Shown: positions 1-55,837, counted from the first letter of the stretch. The stretch: DNA of 64,000 bases from Candidatus Saccharimonadales bacterium (GCA_049521895.1 JBEKOJ010000001.1:354717-418716), one strand, 5' to 3'. Translations and numbers: made by a program. The notes: generated by a model from the letters alone, not told the origin.

Positions 1-107
1 AACAATAACTATGATGACGATGGCAATTACCATAATTTAGACTTTACTCCTTTACCCACTTTATAGCCCTTATTATACATCTGGGGAGCTATATTAAATA
101 GCGGAAA

Positions 108-1331
108 GTGTATGATAAAAACATAAGAGGAATTTACGGATTGCGCCAAAAGTTAAGACTCGGGTGGTTGCTGGCGGTGATAGTGCTGGCGGTAATTGGT
201 TTGGTGATTTTTGACTATACCCGACCCCTACCACTAATACGCCCGCAAGCCCAGACACCTAGCCCGATAGCCGCCCAAGCTATTGACTTACCGTGGCCAA
301 CTGGCGGACAAGCAGCTATTGGCGCCGTTGGTTTTGGGGTACTGGCTACAAACCACACCGAGCAAGCTATACCAATGGCCAGCGTAGCTAAAATCATTAC
401 CGCGCTGGCTGTGCTTAAACAAAAGCCCCTGGAGCTGGGCCAGCAAGGACCGACGATTACTTTCGATAGCACGGATGTATCTTATTACCAAACTTATGCT
501 GCCGAGGGCGGTTCTGTGGCAAAAGTTGTCATCGGCGAAAATATCAGTGAATATCAAGTGCTCCAGACCATGCTGCTACCCTCAGCCAATAACATCGCTG
601 AGAGTTTGGCGCGCTGGGCTTTTGGCTCGCCTAACGCCTACATTGCCTACGTCAACCAGTTCGTAAAAACTCTGGGCATGACCCAGACAAACGTGGCCGA
701 TGCCAGCGGTTTTGTATCGCAAACCACCAGCACAGCCAAGGACTTGGTGATCTTGGGCGAGGCGGCAATGAATAATTCTGTTTTAGCGCAAATCGTCGGC
801 CAGAGCCAAGCCACGGTGCCGGTTGCCGGGACGGTTGATAATACAAATTGGTTGCTGGGCAGCGACGGTTTTGTGGGCATTAAAACCGGCAATACCGACC
901 AAGATCCCGGCTGTTATTTGTTTGCTGTTAGCCAGATATTTGGTGGCCAGCCGCTGTATATAGTTGGAGCGGTTATGGGCATGCCCACACTCACAGATGC
1001 GATAAGCAATGGGCGCACTTTGGCTGATGCCGCCAAAACAAGTTTTAGCAACCCGACTATTGTAAAAGCTGGCCAAATAATCGGTGCATACAAATTGCCC
1101 TGGGGCGGCAGTATACAAGCTGTGGCCCAAAAAGATTTAGCGGTTGTTACTTGGAAAGGCGTACAAATAACACCTATAGTGAGTTTGAATCCACTGCATG
1201 CATCAGCCGCGGCTGGAATGCAAATTGGTACTTTGAGCGCAGCTTCTGGCCAAGAAACAGTTAGCGTACCGGTGGTCATTAAGCAGGCTGTTCCTAAACC
1301 TCCCCTTCTCTGGCGCCTATTCCGTCTATAA
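108..1331 (+). CDS. serine-type D-Ala-D-Ala carboxypeptidase (peptidase S11, PBP5-like)
   Basis: 407-aa ORF with GTG start and N-terminal membrane anchor; SxxK (SVAK), SxN (SAN) and KTG (KTGN) motifs in canonical order. Confidence 0.85.
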   Translation: MYDKNIRGIYGLRQKLRLGWLLAVIVLAVIGLVIFDYTRPLPLIRPQAQTPSPIAAQAIDLPWPTGGQAAIGAVGFGVLATNHTEQAIPMASVAKIITALAVLKQKPLELGQQGPTITFDSTDVSYYQTYAAEGGSVAKVVIGENISEYQVLQTMLLPSANNIAESLARWAFGSPNAYIAYVNQFVKTLGMTQTNVADASGFVSQTTSTAKDLVILGEAAMNNSVLAQIVGQSQATVPVAGTVDNTNWLLGSDGFVGIKTGNTDQDPGCYLFAVSQIFGGQPLYIVGAVMGMPTLTDAISNGRTLADAAKTSFSNPTIVKAGQIIGAYKLPWGGSIQAVAQKDLAVVTWKGVQITPIVSLNPLHASAAAGMQIGTLSAASGQETVSVPVVIKQAVPKPPLLWRLFRL

Positions 1332-1669: not shown

Positions 1670-3301
1670 TTGAGTAAGGTCGCGCATTATTTACAAGAGC
1701 ATCTGTTGGGGGAAGTGACTGATAGCCCTGAGGTACGTCGGTATTTCTCTCAGGATGCCAGCATTTTGCGCCTAGTGCCGTCTATTGTGGTCTACCCCAG
1801 AAACGAGAGTGATGTGCGCAAGACTGCGCGCTTTAGCTGGCAGTTAGCGGAACGCAAGCGTATCTTACCTATAACTGCCCGCGGCGGCGGCAGCGACACC
1901 TCCGGTGCGGCTATTGGCAGCGGCATTTTGCTGGTCTTCACCACCCACATGAACAAAATCCTGACACTGGATCCGCGCAAAAATTTTGTAACTCTGGAGC
2001 CGGGAGTTACTTACGATAAGCTGGAGCAAACCCTTTATACGCACGGGTTATTTTTGCCTCCCTACCCCAGTTCCAAGCAATACGCTACTATTGGCGGCGG
2101 CCTAGCTAACAATGCCATGGGCGAAAAATCAGTTAAGTATGGTTCTATTGGTGACTATGTGGAACGATTAAGAATTGTACTGACTAACGGCGAGGTTGTT
2201 GAGACCGGTCCTTTGGGCAAGCGTGAGCTTAACCGCAAGCTCGGCTTATCAACTTTTGAAGGCGAGATTTATCGCGGTTTGGACAAATTGCTGGAAGAGA
2301 ATGCTGATTTCATCAAGCGTGAGAAAGGCCAGATAAAGACCCGCTGGAATGCCGCTGGATATAACATTTTTGACATCAAAAAGAAGGGTCATTTTAATTT
2401 AACACCCTTGATTTTGGGCTCACAAGGTACGCTAGGTATCATTACTGAAGCAACTTTAGGAGTGGTCGCCTACAATCCCAGGACCTACTTACTGTTGGCA
2501 AGCTTGGACAACTTGGAAGCTATGGATGGGATTATACCCAAGATACTTGAGCTTAAGCCCAGCAGTTTTGAGATGATAAACCAGGCTGCCATAGGCCACG
2601 TCACAATGATCAGCCCGCCTCAGTTATCGGGGCTGCTGGAGAACCCGGCGGCGGTTATACATTTGTTTATCGAGTTTGATAACCTTAAAGATAGCAGCCA
2701 GAAACACAGCATAAAGAAAGCTAAGAAAATTATCGAGCAGGCTGGCGGCCACACGCAAATAACAAATAATCCTAACGCCCAGGAAAAACTTTGGAAAGTC
2801 CGGCAAAGCGTAGCCACAATTTTAAGCGAACCCCAGAATCAGGCCAAAGCCGTGCCCGTAGCCGAAGATATTAGCGTGCCAACCGATCGTTTGGTGGAGT
2901 TTTTGCAGCGAGCCTCGGCAATTTATGAGCAAAATGGACTGACGGCTAGCGCGTGGGGACACGCTGGTGACGGTATCGTCCGTATGCAACCAGTGTTAGA
3001 TTTATCACAACTGGGCGATAGACAGAGGTTATTTAAGCTAGCCGATTCTATGTACGATTTAGCTATCGAACTGGGGGGATCCATAACCGCGTCTGCGGGC
3101 GACGGCCGGGTACGCAGCCCTTATAGCCGTAAGCTCTACAGTAGCGGTCTGCATGACATAATGCTGCAGGTCAAGAAAATTTTTGACCCGCACGGCATCC
3201 TCAATCCCGGCGTAAAAACGGCCACCATGGACGATGTCCGGGCTTTAATGCGCAGTGATTACAATTTGGGCCATCGCCACGAGCACCTGCCGGGAAGCTA
3301 A
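1670..3301 (+). CDS. FAD-binding oxidoreductase (GlcD / D-lactate dehydrogenase family)
   Basis: 543 aa, TTG start; N-terminal FAD-binding PCMH-type region (RGGGSDTSGAA) plus C-terminal FAD-linked oxidase-like region. Confidence 0.75.
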   Translation: MSKVAHYLQEHLLGEVTDSPEVRRYFSQDASILRLVPSIVVYPRNESDVRKTARFSWQLAERKRILPITARGGGSDTSGAAIGSGILLVFTTHMNKILTLDPRKNFVTLEPGVTYDKLEQTLYTHGLFLPPYPSSKQYATIGGGLANNAMGEKSVKYGSIGDYVERLRIVLTNGEVVETGPLGKRELNRKLGLSTFEGEIYRGLDKLLEENADFIKREKGQIKTRWNAAGYNIFDIKKKGHFNLTPLILGSQGTLGIITEATLGVVAYNPRTYLLLASLDNLEAMDGIIPKILELKPSSFEMINQAAIGHVTMISPPQLSGLLENPAAVIHLFIEFDNLKDSSQKHSIKKAKKIIEQAGGHTQITNNPNAQEKLWKVRQSVATILSEPQNQAKAVPVAEDISVPTDRLVEFLQRASAIYEQNGLTASAWGHAGDGIVRMQPVLDLSQLGDRQRLFKLADSMYDLAIELGGSITASAGDGRVRSPYSRKLYSSGLHDIMLQVKKIFDPHGILNPGVKTATMDDVRALMRSDYNLGHRHEHLPGS

Positions 3302-4222: not shown

Positions 4223-4807
4223 ATGAAAAGAAGCTTGGCTCTGTTTTTTGTAGCTGTATCTATAGTTATTTTGTTTACCCCAAACTTAGTTAGGGCGCAG
4301 AGTGCTTCGGATGCTTTCAGCCAGTACACTGACCCTCATGCCATATGCGATTACTACAGGAGCGGCCAAGCAGATATCACGACGGCCAACGGTATAGTTC
4401 ATCCTGTTATCGAAAGAGAATCAAATAACGAATGCTTGGTTAGCATTGGGTCTGGTAAGTCAAAAACCTTCACTCAATACTATTATTCTGGGGATAACTG
4501 GTGCTACAAACTTTATTCAGGAAGCGAGGTTGTTTCTAGTTTATGCGTCCAAAGACCGAACAAATCTATAGATCTTACGAAGTATAAATCTTATATCATC
4601 GGCGGGGTGATAGTATTCGCCTTCGTTATTACCATGGGCGCTATATCTGGTAACAAACCACCCGTTATCCCCGAACAGCCAGCAACCGAGAATACCCCGA
4701 CATACAGCCAACCCAAGTCAGTTCGTAGCAAGGTGGCGAGGCCCAAAAAGAGAGGCCGCATCTGGCCTGAGCTCAGTCGCTGGCTCAAGCTCGGCCGCAA
4801 AAAATAG
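4223..4807 (+). CDS. secreted / C-terminally membrane-anchored hypothetical protein
   Basis: 194 aa; signal peptide ending VRAQS; Cys-containing ectodomain; one TM helix near the C-terminus; Lys/Arg-rich tail. Confidence 0.6.
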   Translation: MKRSLALFFVAVSIVILFTPNLVRAQSASDAFSQYTDPHAICDYYRSGQADITTANGIVHPVIERESNNECLVSIGSGKSKTFTQYYYSGDNWCYKLYSGSEVVSSLCVQRPNKSIDLTKYKSYIIGGVIVFAFVITMGAISGNKPPVIPEQPATENTPTYSQPKSVRSKVARPKKRGRIWPELSRWLKLGRKK

Positions 4808-4974: not shown

Positions 4975-5685
4975 TTATTGAATCAGTGTGGACGTGGCCG
5001 GCGCTGTGATTGTGACTGATTCATAGGACACAGTCATGTCAGTGGTGGCACCAGCGCTATCTTCTGAAGTTAGACTCTGAAGCCGGTAGTTCTTGGTGTC
5101 AAACCAGAAGAATGTAGTTGTGCCAGTTTGAGTCGGATCAACTTCTTGATACTTGTAACAAGTTAATGTTCCACAGGAAACCTTACTGATGTAGTTATAT
5201 TTCACCTTTTTGGCAGCTTGGGTTTTGAAGTCAGGCTTAAGACTATCGCCAGGGTTAGTCACAGCTGGCGCGGACGTAGATCCTGCAGCGTATCTGTACC
5301 AAGTCGTGGTATTTGGAAGTTCAACATAGGTCGTTCCGGCAGATTTAATGATATCACCTGAAGAGGTGATGTATGAAAGTCCGCCATTACCATCAGATTC
5401 AATCGTTATAGTATCGGCACTGCCGGATTTAGGGGTCGTTTTGATGACTAGCTTATATGGCTTGTTAGTTAATGTGAAAAGGGCGCCAAAATCACAGAGC
5501 TTGGTATCGTTATACGATTTCAAGCAGCTGCTTTGAACAACTTTTTGAGCGGCATTGAGCTTTGGGCTAGAGTTCTTCTTCCATACTACCCAGCCAACTA
5601 GGCCGATGACGACAATCACTGCGATTACTAATAATAATTCTAAGGAATGAAATCCTTGCTGATTTTTACGGAGTTTGCGGTTCAT
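4975..5685 (-). CDS. type IV pilin-like protein (prepilin N-terminal cleavage/methylation motif)
   Basis: Start moved to MNRKLRKNQQ (GAGGTGG upstream); QQG/FHSLE with Glu at +5 followed by a hydrophobic helix; variable C-terminal domain with Cys pair. Confidence 0.7.
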   Translation of the reverse strand: MNRKLRKNQQGFHSLELLLVIAVIVVIGLVGWVVWKKNSSPKLNAAQKVVQSSCLKSYNDTKLCDFGALFTLTNKPYKLVIKTTPKSGSADTITIESDGNGGLSYITSSGDIIKSAGTTYVELPNTTTWYRYAAGSTSAPAVTNPGDSLKPDFKTQAAKKVKYNYISKVSCGTLTCYKYQEVDPTQTGTTTFFWFDTKNYRLQSLTSEDSAGATTDMTVSYESVTITAPATSTLIQ

Positions 5686-5787: not shown

Positions 5788-6393
5788 CTAGTATGCGGTT
5801 AGGTGGTTTACTATGTTAGCGAAATCTTGGGTGGTCTGTGTTTGGAGTGCAGTATCGTCGCACTCATTTGAAGCATCAAAATATATGTAATAATAGTTCC
5901 CCACTTTTGAGTAAGCGGGTGGCAGGGTGTTAGATGCTGCAAAATCTTGGCTGAGATATTCCTGCGCAGCCTCTGGAGTAGGGCTTTCTGGCGCGACATT
6001 GTCTGTTGGTAAGTACTTGCCTATATACCCCGCTGCACCGGCTGCAGTCGTACACATTGATGGACCGCCAGCATTGAGTTCAGCCGAACTAACATTCATT
6101 CTGTTTGATGAACTACTGTCTGGTTGATATTGAAGTGTCAAGGAACCACTGTATGGTGCCCTAACGCTCCATTGACTTATGGTGAAGTAATTAACGGCGG
6201 GTGTCGCAGTCTTTGTAGGCGAAGCAGCGGTTTTTGATGGAGCTGAGCTATTAGCTGCGGTAGTTGAAGTCGTTGCCTTGTGATGGTTCTTGTACACCAT
6301 CCAACCGACTACACCCAGCAGCACAACAATTATTAAAACTAACAGTATCTCAACTACTCCAAAACCCTGTTTATTTTTTTTCAATTTAGTCAT
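5788..6393 (-). CDS. type IV pilin-like protein
   Basis: MTKLKKNKQG/FGVVEILLVLIIVVLLGVVGW: Gly-Phe cleavage site, Glu+5, hydrophobic helix; S/T/A-rich linker. Confidence 0.7.
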   Translation of the reverse strand: MTKLKKNKQGFGVVEILLVLIIVVLLGVVGWMVYKNHHKATTSTTAANSSAPSKTAASPTKTATPAVNYFTISQWSVRAPYSGSLTLQYQPDSSSSNRMNVSSAELNAGGPSMCTTAAGAAGYIGKYLPTDNVAPESPTPEAAQEYLSQDFAASNTLPPAYSKVGNYYYIYFDASNECDDTALQTQTTQDFANIVNHLTAY

Positions 6394-21495: not shown

Positions 21496-21783
21496 ATGCT
21501 TAATGATCTAATCTTCTTGGGGCAAATCCCCGGAACCAATTTTCAGATAACTTTTACCGACATCGTGGACATATCTCTACTCAGCCTGGCTCTACTTCTT
21601 TGCGGCTACCTTTATTATCTGGAGTTGAAAGCAGCGTGGGACAGGAAATTCTCCGAGAAGTTGCAGAACCAGCGTTTTATTCTGCCGGTACAAGCGATTG
21701 GCCATATAAGTTTAGCTCTTCCAGCAAATAACGATCCTGTTCAGCTAGACCTGTTTGTTTTTCCAATTCCCCAAGACGCTTAA
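21496..21783 (+). CDS. small hypothetical membrane protein
   Basis: Has its own promoter and a weak SD (TGGAG); one TM helix; the 3' third overlaps the convergent sbcB end, so the true stop and extent are uncertain. Confidence 0.4.
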   Translation: MLNDLIFLGQIPGTNFQITFTDIVDISLLSLALLLCGYLYYLELKAAWDRKFSEKLQNQRFILPVQAIGHISLALPANNDPVQLDLFVFPIPQDA

Positions 21784-23266
21784 AGAAATGGGCGGCGCGG
21801 CTAGCCCCACCGCCTTCCATCAGACGCTGGCGGCGGAATTTTTCCCATTGTTCTTGCTCGCCGGGGCTGAGTGATTTGGGATAATTACGGGCTTTATATA
21901 GCGGTAGCAACAGTTTTAGCCTCTCATCAGCAAAATCCAGCTGAAGATCAGCCAGCTTTTCCGCGTCCGCGGCCCGGACTACGCGCATTCTGGTTCTATC
22001 AGTATCATTAATGAAACCATCGTAGAGCTGTTCGTCGACTTTCTGCGGGTCGGCAATTATCCCGGCTTGGACTTTGGGCCAGATAATTTCGGCGGCGGCT
22101 ACCAGTTTGTCGCCAAAATCCTCAGCCTTTAGCAGCTTGGCCAGATTGGTATCAACTTCGGCGCTGTTAATTTTCAGCCGGCTAGCGCTTTTGGCGTCCA
22201 AAACTGACAACGGGGCAATAGTTGGGCATCTGTTATAAGACAGGACCTTTACAGGAAAATACGGCTCCGCAACACGCACTGCGCCAACCTGCTTACTGGC
22301 AGAGCCAGTAACTCTGCTGGCGCTTGCGGCGGATTGCGATGTTGCCGGCTGTGACTGCTCCTTCGCAGTACCATTACTGTACAGCTCAGTCCGCTGCTCG
22401 CCGGCGCCTTGCACTCCACTCGCCTGCGTGCTGCTGGAAGACCGATATTGCCATGCTGCCGCGAGCTCTGTCGGAGACATTGACAAAAACGGGGTAGGGT
22501 CAATGCGCAAATCATATACCAGGGCAGCATTTTTGCTGGGGTCTGGCGCAACCATTACCGCTATGGTAGTTTTTTCGTATTCAGCCGGGTAGCGTCCGCT
22601 GGTATAGATAAAGGGTCTGCCCGTGGCGACCAGTGCGGCGATTTTATTTTTGTCGCGCAGTTTGAGTAGATAATTAAACAGTTTTGGCTGCTTGGTTTTT
22701 ACCAGATTGGCCAGCGCAATTACGGCTTTAACATCGCTTAGGGCGTTGTGGGCGTTAGCGTGCTCCAGTTTATTAATCTGACTGATATCTTCCAAGCGGT
22801 TACTGGCTTTGCCATCAGGGGCAAATGGCCATTTTATACCTTCCGGCCTGAGCGCCCGCGTCATACGTACCACGTCAAGCAGATCCCACTTGCCACGGCT
22901 ATCTTTCCATTGCCACTCGTAAGCATCCACGAAGTTGCGCCAGAGTGTGAAGCGTATAAATTCATCGTCAAAACGGATATTATTATAACCAGCAGCGATG
23001 GTATCCGGCGTAAATACTTGACGTGTTAAGTATTTTGTAAACTCAGCTTCGGTGACCCCTTCGGTGATTGTCTGTTGCGGAGTAATACCATGCACCATCA
23101 CGGCGTCCGGTTCCGGCAAAATATCGGATGTCATCTTAACTAGCGTGTTATCAGGCTCGCCTACTGGTTTAAGGTTCATGTCAGTTCGTTGCCCGGCAAA
23201 CTGCATGATACGTGCCAAGCGAGGGTTGAAGCCGCTGGTTTCCAGATCATAAAAATAAAAAGTCAT
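21677..23266 (-). CDS. sbcB: exodeoxyribonuclease I
   Basis: N-terminal DEDDh motif (FYFYDLETSG) with ExoI-like architecture; contains an S/T/A/Q low-complexity insertion. Confidence 0.8.
   Translation of the reverse strand: MTFYFYDLETSGFNPRLARIMQFAGQRTDMNLKPVGEPDNTLVKMTSDILPEPDAVMVHGITPQQTITEGVTEAEFTKYLTRQVFTPDTIAAGYNNIRFDDEFIRFTLWRNFVDAYEWQWKDSRGKWDLLDVVRMTRALRPEGIKWPFAPDGKASNRLEDISQINKLEHANAHNALSDVKAVIALANLVKTKQPKLFNYLLKLRDKNKIAALVATGRPFIYTSGRYPAEYEKTTIAVMVAPDPSKNAALVYDLRIDPTPFLSMSPTELAAAWQYRSSSSTQASGVQGAGEQRTELYSNGTAKEQSQPATSQSAASASRVTGSASKQVGAVRVAEPYFPVKVLSYNRCPTIAPLSVLDAKSASRLKINSAEVDTNLAKLLKAEDFGDKLVAAAEIIWPKVQAGIIADPQKVDEQLYDGFINDTDRTRMRVVRAADAEKLADLQLDFADERLKLLLPLYKARNYPKSLSPGEQEQWEKFRRQRLMEGGGASRAAHFFKRLGELEKQTGLAEQDRYLLEELNLYGQSLVPAE
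23013..23033 (+). promoter_or_regulatory. intragenic copy of the marR-type palindromic box
   Basis: AATACTTGACGTGTTAAGTAT(TTT), 24/25 identical to 1330-1354; lies antisense inside sbcB. Confidence 0.45.
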
Positions 23267-29027: not shown

Positions 29028-30326
29028 TTATATTCTTAACATCTTATTGAGTTTATCCTTAACGGAGGCGTTATCGCCAGCCACGCCGCTATTTATAGTG
29101 TCCATACCGACTCTAAGTAAACCCATGGCCGTGATAAAGGTATGGTCGTTAACATCGCCGGTGGTATCGGTGATACCTACCACCTCATCTGGTTGTATGT
29201 GGTGCACAGTAGGCTTTTTGGTAAACGGCAGGCTTTTGTACCAGTCGCCGTCCTGAAGTTGATCCATCAACATGTGCAAGGAAGAACCGCCGCCGCACAA
29301 CAACAGGTGCTGCGGCAGATGGTCTAATTTATCAAATTCGGAAAGCGCCAGTTCTACGCCGCTAAGCCAGACGTTCAGAGTTTTTGACAAGGCTTTTTCT
29401 ATCTCGGCCTTTTTTGCACCTTCTTGGGCAGCGCTTAGGGCCAGCTTTAGCGATTCTGCTTTAGTGAAATCTATGTCCAACTCACGCTCAATAGCATGGG
29501 TAAAGGCCCGGCCGCCGATGCCAAACATCTTAGTACCTTCTACGCCGCCTTCGTTGACTACGGCTATATCTGTAGTGCCGCCGCCGACATCCATTAGTAC
29601 GGCGCTTATAGAAGTGCTGGCGTTATCGCCAACTACCGAACGGGCTACAGCGAACGGCTCAGCCGCCACCGCCAAAAGCTCCAAATCAAGTTCGGCGGCT
29701 GTGCGCTCCAGTGCGCCGATATGGATCATCGGCGCGAAGGCGGTGTACATCTCTACCACCACGTCGCGTCCCTGGAAACCTACCGGATTGGTAACTTTAT
29801 AGCCATCGATGTCAATACGTACCAACGCACTGTTTACCAAGCGCACTTCTACGTCTTTGCCGCCCAGCTCCCAAGCCAGTTGCTGCCGTGCTTTGGCCTC
29901 AGCGCGCTCTTGTACCAACTCTATGATGCGCGACATCTCATCAATGCTCAGTTCTTTTTCGGAATTTTTGCGGGTAAAACGTACCGTGCTGGTAGTGCCT
30001 TTTACGAGTTCGCCGGCGATACCCAGTATAGCCGTGCGGGCGCTCACGCCGGCCTGTTGCTCGGCCTTAGCCAGGGCTTTGTCGCAGTTGGCTACCACAG
30101 CTTCGATATCAGAAATTGCGCCGGCTTGCATATCAGACAGGTTCTGATGGGCTCGCCCGACCCCTATAATCTCCACGCTATCGCCGATAACCCGGCCAAC
30201 AAGAGCTTTTATAAATTCGGTGCCCACATCTAAGGCCACTATATATTTGCCCACCGGTTTACCCCGCCTGGCAACTTCTTTGACTTTGGGGAGTTTGCTC
30301 CTTAGAGCTTTAGCTTTATCAAGCAT
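29028..30326 (-). CDS. ftsA: actin-like ATPase, FtsA-like cell division protein
   Basis: ALDVGTEFIKA and DVGGGTTDIAV phosphate-binding motifs; start moved to the ATG (MLDKAKAL) because the upstream GTG extension lies in the C1 RNA helix. Confidence 0.7.
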   Translation of the reverse strand: MLDKAKALRSKLPKVKEVARRGKPVGKYIVALDVGTEFIKALVGRVIGDSVEIIGVGRAHQNLSDMQAGAISDIEAVVANCDKALAKAEQQAGVSARTAILGIAGELVKGTTSTVRFTRKNSEKELSIDEMSRIIELVQERAEAKARQQLAWELGGKDVEVRLVNSALVRIDIDGYKVTNPVGFQGRDVVVEMYTAFAPMIHIGALERTAAELDLELLAVAAEPFAVARSVVGDNASTSISAVLMDVGGGTTDIAVVNEGGVEGTKMFGIGGRAFTHAIERELDIDFTKAESLKLALSAAQEGAKKAEIEKALSKTLNVWLSGVELALSEFDKLDHLPQHLLLCGGGSSLHMLMDQLQDGDWYKSLPFTKKPTVHHIQPDEVVGITDTTGDVNDHTFITAMGLLRVGMDTINSGVAGDNASVKDKLNKMLRI

Positions 30327-30348
30327 ATTATCAGATTGATTATAGCAC

Positions 30349-44933: not shown

Positions 44934-45162
44934 TGGTACAGCCTCCTCTTGTTTGCACAACACGACTTTGAGACCAAAGAGACTATTAACGAAAGACCTT
45001 GGCTCTCACCACCTTCTTAAGGGTACGCGTCACTTTTAGGCGGACGCACGTTTGCCCTTTTAGTCTTCAGAGGCACTTGCGATTCGTCATCACAAGCTTA
45101 CTGCCTCCCCGCTGGGCTCTGGTGCTTGCTGACTTCAAGCCCAGCGGACAGGCAACAAAATT

Positions 45163-45327
45163 CGCGCTTCACATCTGGATGCAGTGCAAGGAAGCGGCGA
45201 GTAGCACAATGAGCTGTATTCTAAATACAGTGATTGAGCAACGGAGCCGCTGACACAGCAATGCGCCAGAAGCATTGGCGGTGCATCCGTCTTCGGCGGA
45301 TGGCAGGACAATGCGTTGTGAAGTGCG
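45163..45327 (+). ncRNA. candidate structured RNA, family copy C2
   Basis: P1 CGCGCUUCACA/UGUGAAGUGCG; P2 AGCGGC/GCCGCU; P3 CUGUAUU-cua-AAUACAG; hairpin CAAUGC-gccagaa-GCAUUG; hairpin CAUCCGUC-uuc-GGCGGAUG; a terminator follows. Confidence 0.6.
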
Positions 45328-45330
45328 AAT

Positions 45331-45365
45331 AAAAAACGACTGCTTCTTGCTGCAGTCGTTGTTTC
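45331..45365. terminator. intrinsic terminator (bidirectional shape)
   Basis: AAAAAACGACTGC-ttcttgct-GCAGTCGTTGTTT. Confidence 0.7.
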
Positions 45366-46684: not shown

Positions 46685-47091
46685 TGGTGGAGCTGGTGGG
46701 CACTACCCCCACGTCCGATTGGTAACTAACCCAGGTGACTACAAGCTTAGATCGCTTGAAATTTCTTAAGCCAAACTATAGAAACGATCCAAAACAGTCC
46801 GGCTAAAGTCCATTAAACTTAATAAGCTGCGGGCGGACCACCCAGCTGCTTACGCGATCAGATAATATGGCGCCATGTCGTTTTATCTGATGTCAAACGA
46901 TTGACGGTAGCCTATTAAATTAGGCTACGTTGAGAGCAAAGCTGCGGGGAGCGAACAAGTTCGCGACCGCCTCAAATGCCCTAGAGATAGAGTTTTTGAC
47001 AGCTATCTTGTTTGATCCGGCTAACGTGCAGATCAATCCGGCCTGCCACCTGAATTGTTAAAGTCCATTCGTCGAGCTTAAATTCAGCCCC
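46685..47091 (-). ncRNA. ssrA: transfer-messenger RNA
   Basis: 5' GGGGCUGAAUUUAAGCUCGACG pairs with 3' CAGCUCC-A-CCA (G3-U pair as in tRNA-Ala); T-arm-like GUGGG-GGUAGUG-CCCAC; internal tag-like frame ending ...FALNVA-TAA (tag start not determined). Confidence 0.85.

Positions 47092-55762: not shown

Positions 55763-55837
<75 letters not shown>

Follow-up and report, generated by a model that had tools for sequence, protein, structure and literature searches.

The main finding obtained in this work is that C2, a GC-rich structured sequence of 169 nt located at positions 45161-45329 (plus strand) of a 64,000-nt stretch of DNA from a Candidatus Saccharimonadales bacterium (GCA_049521895.1 JBEKOJ010000001.1:354717-418716, hereafter the window), probably belongs to a so far undescribed family of structured, non-autonomous insertion elements of Saccharibacteria (Saccharimonadales), whose behaviour resembles that of the Rickettsia palindromic elements (RPEs). 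The original prediction for this region had described three homologous elements, C1 (30349-30514, minus strand), C2 and C3 (56087-56257, plus strand), and had interpreted them as discrete small RNA (sRNA) genes. The coordinates and strands of these copies proved to be right, with the ends of C2 slightly extended, and a fourth copy, C4 (22265-22441, minus strand), has to be added, which gives 4 copies in 64 kb, about 1 per 16 kb. The closest relatives of the window proteins are Saccharimonadales proteins.

Results

The C2 locus and its empty site

C2 lies upstream of uppP, in a divergent intergenic region, and relatives of this locus (L192, L193 and L194) were retrieved through UppP homologues. 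In L192 (UppP 81% identical) the element occupies this position too, with unchanged orientation (91.8 bits; the left arm of C2 scores 92.5 bits with R1, the left-arm covariance model described below), and it is missing from both L193 (UppP 76% identical, syntenic, same upstream neighbours) and L194. The flanks of the site are conserved in the window, L192 and L193, and the junctions can be read directly: the empty junction of L193 is ...AGCCCAGCGGAAGAGCAA-CAAAA-AACGACTGC..., the occupied junction of the window is ...GGCAA-CAAAA-[TTCGCGCTTCACA ... TGTGAAGTGCGAA]-TAAAA-AACGACTGC..., and that of L192 is ...GGCAA-CAATA-[TTCGCTCTTCACA ... TGTGAAGGGCGAA]-CAAAA-AACGACTGC... Occupied and empty sites differ at C2 by 174 nt, that is, the 169-nt element plus 5 nt. 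These sequences fit a CAAAA target-site duplication of 5 bp that later acquired a single mismatch in each genome, the putative left copy in the window being CAAAA (45156-45160, plus strand) and the putative right copy TAAAA (45330-45334, plus strand); given that the site is an A-run, the precise extent of the duplication is uncertain. As read from these junctions, C2 is an insertion that is absent from a syntenic relative. Its ends were set by the comparison of occupied and empty sites with L192 and L193, and within them the fold distinguishes, all on the plus strand, the 5' arm of the closing helix P1 (45161-45173), a left arm (45174-45270), a right arm (45272-45314) and the 3' arm of P1 (45317-45329).

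The terminator that follows C2 within a few nucleotides had been taken as a sign of a discrete sRNA, an interpretation that did not survive the same comparison. The terminator-like hairpin (45335-45360) is bidirectional; according to the terminator scan its better T-tract is on the minus strand, with a weaker T-rich tail on the plus strand. It is kept in L193, and since it is found at the empty site it predates the insertion of C2 and belongs to the locus, not to the element. An upstream hairpin (approximately 45104-45148, CCGCTGGGCT...AGCCCAGCGG) is also present at the empty site and, like the A-tract/T-tract hairpin at 45335-45360, is kept in relatives with or without the element. These two hairpins may make up a small transcription unit or an attenuator-like leader of uppP.

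Copies inside genes

C4 is a copy of 177 nt, recognized by R1 and by its fold, which runs in frame and stop-free inside an exonuclease I gene (sbcB-like; 21677-23266, minus strand) encoding 529 aa, against approximately 474 aa in homologues free of the insert. The unfiltered R1 scan of the window returned C1-C3 and the core of C4 (22324-22424, minus strand; 64.5 bits, E 8e-14), all else scoring 9 bits or less. The full C4 folds at -96.3 kcal/mol (z -6.0), and in it UGGA/UCCG replaces the usual UGCA/UGCG helix, a compensatory change. In the exonuclease I (ExoI) alignment, 59 window residues stand in a variable loop where homologues have 4 (DKDA or similar), and the empty site is seen at the DNA level in L079. 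An AlphaFold model of ExoI with the insert gave the insert a pLDDT of 21-25 and no secondary structure between better-modelled flanks, in a model that is poor as a whole (mean pLDDT 56); this lends weak support to the idea that the C4 insert may be a tolerated loop of the enzyme. Another ExoI homologue (P0076, L078) carries at residues ~275-305 a different, AT-rich insertion of about 30 aa, which R1 does not recognize, in exactly the loop that holds C4, and this loop seems to be an insertion hot spot. The 332-nt gap between sbcB and uvrA was considered as a further copy and rejected, as it is unstructured (z +0.66).

Intragenic copies were also found in genome loci within genes for an UvrD/PcrA helicase (L048), a Mur ligase (L052 and its orthologue L069), a dihydrouridine synthase (Dus; L022) and a DinB-type polymerase (L055), and in metagenome loci within genes for Der/EngA (L105), Dus at a second position (L116), RecG (L128), UvrD in a second lineage (L178), LigA (L169) and TruB (L180). 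They number 12, in at least 9 different housekeeping genes (ExoI, UvrD, MurE, Dus, DinB, Der, RecG, LigA, TruB), and are always in sense. In 134 distinct copies we counted the open reading frames (ORFs) that cross the element and extend at least 50 codons beyond it in both directions: sense frame 0 has 10, the other sense frames have none, and 2 are antisense. Neither antisense case is a real gene: the one in L022 mirrors a true sense ORF on the opposite strand, and the one in L090 is merely open and precedes the start codon that the neighbouring gene actually uses, which makes this copy intergenic. Frame 0 is open in 12 of 12 intragenic copies against 14 of the 122 others, and antisense frames are in general open far more often (18-26 of 49 copies). 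All intragenic copies share a hydrophilic peptide, approximately HLDAVQGSxEER...SER...ADTAMRQE...SAGRQGKAVRG, within an insert of ~57 aa, for which Pfam holds no family. Because the intragenic copies keep one orientation and one open frame, they are most likely read through as an integral segment of the host protein; most simply, the orientation and frame that yield a benign peptide are the only ones to survive. Removal by splicing would require no open frame.

A profile of this peptide searched against 5.8 billion proteins retrieved 15 short hypothetical ORFs only and missed the long host proteins, so the search is no measure of frequency. Public Saccharimonadales "hypothetical proteins" of 46-101 aa (P0121-P0135) are translated intergenic copies whose frame is open by chance.

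Context and turnover of intergenic copies

Most copies are intergenic, and their orientation is random relative to their neighbours: with respect to the upstream and downstream ORFs, 18 copies are opposite/opposite, 17 same/same, 8 same/opposite and 6 opposite/same. As had been proposed from the window, where C1 separates alaS from ftsA and shares their strand (R1 84.4 bits), C2 beside uppP, and C3 antisense to its flanking minus-strand genes (tRNA/pgk and a hypothetical gene; R1 71.4 bits), the neighbours differ from locus to locus. They are unrelated housekeeping genes, and all-against-all clustering of the ORFs of 56 loci found no recurrent neighbouring protein family. A consensus scan for sigma-70-like promoters found none at C1-C3, and neither upstream -10 boxes nor downstream U-tracts showed positional enrichment over 48 copies. 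Over 28-64 kb of the window the GC skew is uniformly negative, with C1 on the minus strand and C2 and C3 on the plus strand; therefore, the orientation of the copies is independent of the direction of replication. TGnTATAAT-like extended -10 boxes stand right after the 3' end of several copies (C1, L045, L025 and L001), that of C1 being at 30325-30345 of the window (minus strand, GTGCTATAAT), ahead of ftsA. These boxes could be promoters of the downstream gene or outward-facing promoters associated with the element.

Comparisons between related loci show turnover. In one conserved operon, a copy lies between genes 11 (or x) and 9 in L018 and L043, and between genes 8 and 12, in the opposite orientation, in L060. 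One intergenic gap is occupied in both L001 and L017, in opposite orientations and with unrelated P1 sequences, and in the orthologous pair L012/L071 the downstream ribosome-binding site and start codon lie within P1. At L029, a 3' fragment (6075-6112; …GCTGGACAGCAGGC…GGTGCGAAACTTGTG) resembling the element at the orthologous site of L068 stands directly upstream of a complete element with a differing interior, an arrangement that suggests nested insertion, partial duplication or replacement between copies.

Fold and covariation

The minimum-free-energy folds of C1 (-86.3 kcal/mol, z -8.2), C2 (-79.6 kcal/mol, z -7.1) and C3 (-89.3 kcal/mol, z -8.2) share one Y shape, a three-way junction in which the helix P1 closes the base and two arms branch off, the left one long and irregular, the right one shorter and tipped by a GC hairpin. 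A copy measures ~165-200 nt, with a near-perfect P1 duplex of about 20 bp (median), a left arm of ~100 nt with conserved internal loops and a right arm of ~45 nt. Among the helices that had been quoted for the window copies, P1, P3 and the terminal hairpins are correct, and P2 of C3, given earlier as GGCGCA/UGCGCC, had been misassigned; alignment and fold place it at GCAAGC/GCUUGC. A composite pattern built from the shared blocks (GYAGTRCAAGG, 58-78 nt, AATGCGCC, 28-45 nt, GCAGG) matches only C1, C2 and C3 in the window, with 0 matches expected from shuffles, and the spacing from the first to the second block is exactly 68 nt in all three.

The compensatory helix changes noticed at the outset were borne out by an alignment of 49 distinct copies, from which RNAalifold derived a consensus of 52 pairs. 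Double compensatory changes occur in 39 of the 52, and standard pairs fill 92.4% of the cells, against 74.6% in shuffles. The covariation score is 0.56, against 0.22 for shuffled alignments and 0.06-0.12 with slid partners, so that the covariation suggested from three copies holds for further homologues. Almost all of the top column pairs by mutual information belong to nested helices, and pseudoknots or other long-range pairings were accordingly rejected. Further features of the fold are invariant nucleotides in the internal loops and a conserved U-G pair. G-U or U-G pairs occupy 196 cells and A-C or C-A 48 (116 and 47 after removal of two conserved wobble pairs), and the sense fold is more stable than that of the complement in 48 of the 49 copies (mean -70.0 against -56.2 kcal/mol). 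The fold is strand-specific and is kept on one strand by compensatory substitutions. The argument that G-U pairs favour an RNA over a DNA cruciform stands in part: a double-stranded cruciform is excluded, while the argument does not part RNA from a strand-specific single-stranded DNA intermediate.

The invariance of the shared blocks is a partial artefact, because the search pattern demanded them. R1, the covariance model of the left arm, picks up more diverged copies, and in these the blocks fixed by the pattern vary with compensation (CCC/GGG for URC/GYA; UGAA/UUCG or UGGA/UCCG for UGCA/UGCG). "Palindrome correction" by template switching is a possible non-selective contributor to the compensatory pattern. 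The 4:1 excess of G-U over A-C would not arise in that way.

Family size, host range and related short forms

Among GTDB species representatives, 71 loci match the composite pattern, of which ~46 come from metagenome-assembled genomes of Candidatus Saccharibacteria/Saccharimonadales, often with several per genome; at least 111 further matching loci were found in metagenomes. In viral contigs there were two matches only, both within coding sequence and due to chance, and hence the element is not phage-borne. The earlier statement that no known RNA family fits was confirmed with Rfam 15, which gave no match at C1-C4 in the whole-window scan at gathering thresholds and nothing relevant for C2 in E-value mode up to 10. 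Rfam likewise holds no family for the element in 13 related loci, nor, at E<=10, for a proteobacterial pair of copies (L027); the sole match in those 13 loci was a ribosomal protein L10 leader (L008, 1414-1544, minus strand), at 46.5 bits, just over the gathering score. We found no account of the element in the searchable literature.

The closest pairs of copies are orthologues across genomes (L012/L071, 91%; L052/L069, 87%). The inner part of P1 is semi-conserved (TTCGCAC/GTGCGAA, often with CACAAnn ahead) and the outer part is copy-specific. The outermost pairs of P1 can include native gene sequence, as in L060, where the final codons of gene 8 take part, and in L018, where the initial codons of gene 9 do; these P1-forming codons also exist at the empty sites of relatives. 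Thus, the outer stem seems, at least sometimes, to be built by copying or matching the flank, which would account for its hypervariability.

A short form, consisting of the left arm and a long closing stem with no right arm, occurs in loci of Gallionellaceae, Nitrosomonadales, Burkholderiales, Gammaproteobacteria and Bacteroidales. The terminal inverted repeats of its copies are conserved and fall into more than one type (TCTTACTGTGTCA..., GAGCCTGTTCA..., GGAACCTCTAWAAATTCA...), and CTAA or TTA direct repeats stand at both ends (e.g., CTAA...CTAA). Judged by sequence, the short form displays the classical features of a miniature inverted-repeat transposable element (MITE) around the same ~100-nt core. 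Some loci contain more than one short form. A 4.7-kb Nitrosomonadales contig (L016) has three, at 17-114 (plus strand), 1954-2042 (minus) and 4627-4724 (minus); those at its ends are identical inverted copies, the third, inside, is diverged, and the small genes between them include a PIN-like/DUF433 toxin-antitoxin pair and DUF1640 proteins. The arrangement resembles a set of cassettes, or the contig may have been broken at repeats during assembly. In L027, inverted copies (1865-1963, minus; 2670-2768, plus) bracket a PilZ-domain gene, and in L002 direct copies (5184-5280 and 5921-6019, both minus) bracket the gene of a small secreted protein. In addition, plasmids of the Pseudomonas syringae group and of P. 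veronii (L074-L077; 35 plasmid records) carry an unannotated hairpin repeat of ~140 nt with a diverged version of that core (…CAAGGCAAAA…GGAAGCGGAGTYTACG…GTAAATGAGCATTYTGAG…), near IS5/IS91 transposases and effector and coronatine genes.

Discussion

The empty site at C2, the random orientation and unrelated neighbours of the intergenic copies and the in-frame intragenic copies are the features on which we regard the family as one of insertion elements. A possible course of events can be proposed for them. An enzyme encoded elsewhere and acting in trans would insert the element via a short staggered cut, and the outermost P1 would often be made from flanking host sequence. Selection would then act on a single-stranded form of defined polarity. 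This form might be a transcript, in which the long P1 could, for example, serve as an RNase III-type substrate that limits harm to the neighbours; alternatively, it might be a single-stranded DNA or RNA intermediate of propagation. The element may also have a role at the RNA level. It is also conceivable, and in our judgement rather unlikely, that the left-arm core of ~100 nt (UGCA-G-URC-AA-GGA ... GAC-NNN-GYA-A-UGCG, with tandem G-A loops) is an autonomous functional module; it is shared by the Saccharibacteria elements and by MITE-like hairpins with unrelated terminal repeats. As an RNA or as single-stranded DNA, it could enlist some widely conserved host enzyme or itself catalyse part of its spread. 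If true, the element would stand for a new class of mobile elements that are driven by structure and that also reshape essential proteins in bacteria of the Candidate Phyla Radiation (CPR).

Several observations weigh against the insertion-element interpretation. A clean empty-site comparison is available for one locus only, C2, and its duplication sits in an A-run with one mismatch in the window and one in L192. Copies within one genome are at most 78% identical (mean 63%), with no near-identical pairs, so there is no sign of recent activity or of a burst. The termini are semi-conserved (roughly CACAAnnTTCGCAC / GTGCGAAnnTTGTG) and the outer P1 is variable, unlike the terminal inverted repeats of classical MITEs, and no transposase, integrase or reverse transcriptase was found beside the copies in the 56 loci. 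Copies at the same locus have diverged with 9 double changes, 4 changes of G-U type and 6 leaving a mismatch in L029/L068, and with 12, 3 and 12, respectively, in L018/L043; this divergence argues for a fold that is selected, or repaired, at each locus, beyond what pure "junk" needs. Finally, the conservation of the core across phyla hints at a function or a shared partner.

These last observations bear most directly on the main rival, according to which the copies are a multi-copy family of independently transcribed, trans-acting sRNAs with their own promoters, whose internal loops would all bind the same protein or target. Strong covariation, invariant internal-loop nucleotides, the conserved U-G pair, strand-specific G-U pairs and compensatory divergence at the same locus are what such RNAs would show, the lack of an Rfam match would make them a new class, and the well-kept fold of old, diverged copies together with the cross-phylum core gives this view some weight. 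We nevertheless consider it unlikely. The family counts more than 130 interspersed copies, the intergenic ones favour neither orientation, and no promoter or terminator keeps a fixed position; in particular, no sigma-70-like promoter accompanies the three window copies and -10 boxes are not positionally enriched over 48 copies. Many copies fill short intergenic gaps antisense to both neighbours, the 12 intragenic copies are kept open in one frame, and at C2 the terminator is older than the element, which is absent from the empty site and flanked by the 5-bp duplication. The notion of discrete sRNA genes, from which this analysis started, is therefore not supported. With domesticated cis-acting punctuation, in RNA or DNA, inserted copies would be kept for the sake of the long hairpin itself, which would offer RNase III a processing site, have a stabilising effect, or insulate or terminate transcription between genes. 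A near-perfect P1 duplex of ~20 bp, the intergenic position of most copies, the fold kept at each locus and the ribosome-binding site and start codon within P1 of L012/L071 are compatible with it, and Correia and ERIC elements, which are reported to work in this manner, provide precedents (PMC10969869). It is made quite improbable by the random orientation of a strand-specific fold relative to the flanking genes and by the lack of a U-tract after P1 in most copies, and it leaves the in-frame intragenic copies unexplained.

The remaining explanations fare worse. An intron-like element excised from RNA, with P1 joining the flanks for excision and ligation, would agree with the sense orientation of every intragenic copy and with the way P1 brings the insertion boundaries together, but the frame is open in 12 of 12 intragenic copies against 11% of the others, most copies are intergenic and Rfam gives no match to a group I or II intron or a ribozyme, which renders it very improbable. 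For a recombination site acting as single-stranded DNA, for instance one resembling integron attC or used by an HUH or Xer recombinase, one can cite the one-strand fold with conserved bulged bases, the fact that G-T wobbles are tolerated in single-stranded DNA too, and the proteobacterial small genes flanked by copies (the PilZ gene of L027, L002 and L016). There are, however, no RYYYAAC/GTTRRRY core sites at the base of the hairpin, which is the least conserved part; the flanking copies are inverted or mixed and form no co-oriented array; both orientations occur in one replichore of the window; and no integrase lies near the copies, so that we hold this possibility to be extremely unlikely. 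The size, the three-way junction and the aptamer-like conserved internal loops, along with the position of C1 upstream of ftsA on the same strand, could recall a riboswitch or cis-regulatory leader, a reading effectively refuted by the context statistics (unrelated neighbours, random orientation, intragenic copies) and unaccompanied by any Rfam match.

The insertion-element interpretation finds its closest parallel in the RPEs, hairpin-forming repeats of ~150 nt that occur between genes and, in frame and with a conserved peptide, inside unrelated genes (PMC10969869, where RPE and MITE behaviour is reviewed). Like RPEs, the element is palindromic, has no gene of its own, occurs both in intergenic regions and in frame in unrelated housekeeping genes, giving a similar peptide each time (here in one orientation and frame in 12 of 12 cases), and resides in a small, host-dependent genome. 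The host is nevertheless a member of Saccharibacteria and not Rickettsia, and for this reason we treat the element as an analogue of RPEs and not as a member; the likeness is one of behaviour, RPE sequences not having been compared, and no sequence relationship is demonstrated. The element also differs from RPEs in its three-way junction, its asymmetric and strongly conserved internal-loop core, its extensive covariation and the sharing of that core with other phyla, and ~10% of its copies are intragenic against nearly half in some RPE families. With MITEs such as Correia/NEMIS, ERIC/YPAL and IS5-derived elements it has in common the small, non-autonomous and interspersed nature, the long hairpins in transcripts, insertion polymorphism between relatives, the short target-site duplication and empty site at C2 (one locus), and proteobacterial relatives with conserved terminal repeats and CTAA/TTA flanks. 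In contrast to MITEs, the terminal repeats of the Saccharibacteria copies are semi-conserved and the outer stem is copy-specific, so that the interior and not the ends is conserved; old copies within one genome (identity up to 78%) keep their fold by compensation, and no parent insertion sequence was present among the neighbours in 56 loci, whole genomes not having been searched.

Other repeats are less similar. REP and REPIN sequences (repetitive extragenic palindromes and their doublets, mobilised by RAYT) are likewise strand-specific hairpin repeats that are mostly intergenic and numerous in a genome, but a REP is a palindrome of 20-40 nt with a conserved GTAG motif and a REPIN joins two of them, while the element contains no REP motif and is not organised as a doublet. 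Integron attC sites, too, are defined by a strand-specific fold with bulged bases, and their tip varies and may branch; however, they conserve the base of the hairpin (R''/R', GTT/AAC cores) and form co-oriented arrays by cassettes, whereas the element occurs as solitary copies that vary most at the base. The element is not an attC site, a riboswitch or a member of an Rfam family, by its ends it is probably no classical MITE either, and it is best called a new, structurally unusual representative of the known palindromic insertion elements.

These results account for conspicuous GC-rich structured intergenic sequences of Saccharibacteria that gene callers miss or miscall as hypothetical proteins of 46-101 aa, and they indicate that reduced CPR genomes can host an abundant insertion element (about 1 copy per 16 kb here). 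They also provide a concrete source for unexplained insertions of ~57 aa in the core enzymes ExoI, UvrD, MurE, LigA, RecG, TruB, Der, Dus and DinB. Annotation would gain from a covariance model of the family, which would also make false "novel sRNA" calls less frequent. With its covarying, strand-specific fold and cross-phylum core, the family is a good system for studying how non-autonomous palindromic elements spread, a question that is open for RPEs too.

Some resemblances to known motifs were considered and set aside. A small toxin ORF of a type I toxin-antitoxin system was suggested by an ATG in GGAUGCAG, which runs into a stop in C3 and several other copies, and the substitutions follow pairing and not codons. 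The sequence GUACAAGGA fits the CsrA SELEX motif RUACARGGA, but several host groups have no CsrA and there is one site per element. Resemblance to a K-turn, a C/D box or a sarcin-ricin loop did not hold, and a comparison with the XerC arm of dif was dropped, having only ATGCGC in common. As for the surroundings of the copies, the window encodes a tmRNA at 46685-47091 (minus strand; Rfam 87.5 bits), ~1.4 kb from C2, and elsewhere nine tRNA genes, one of which (55766-55837, minus strand) lies 250 nt from C3.

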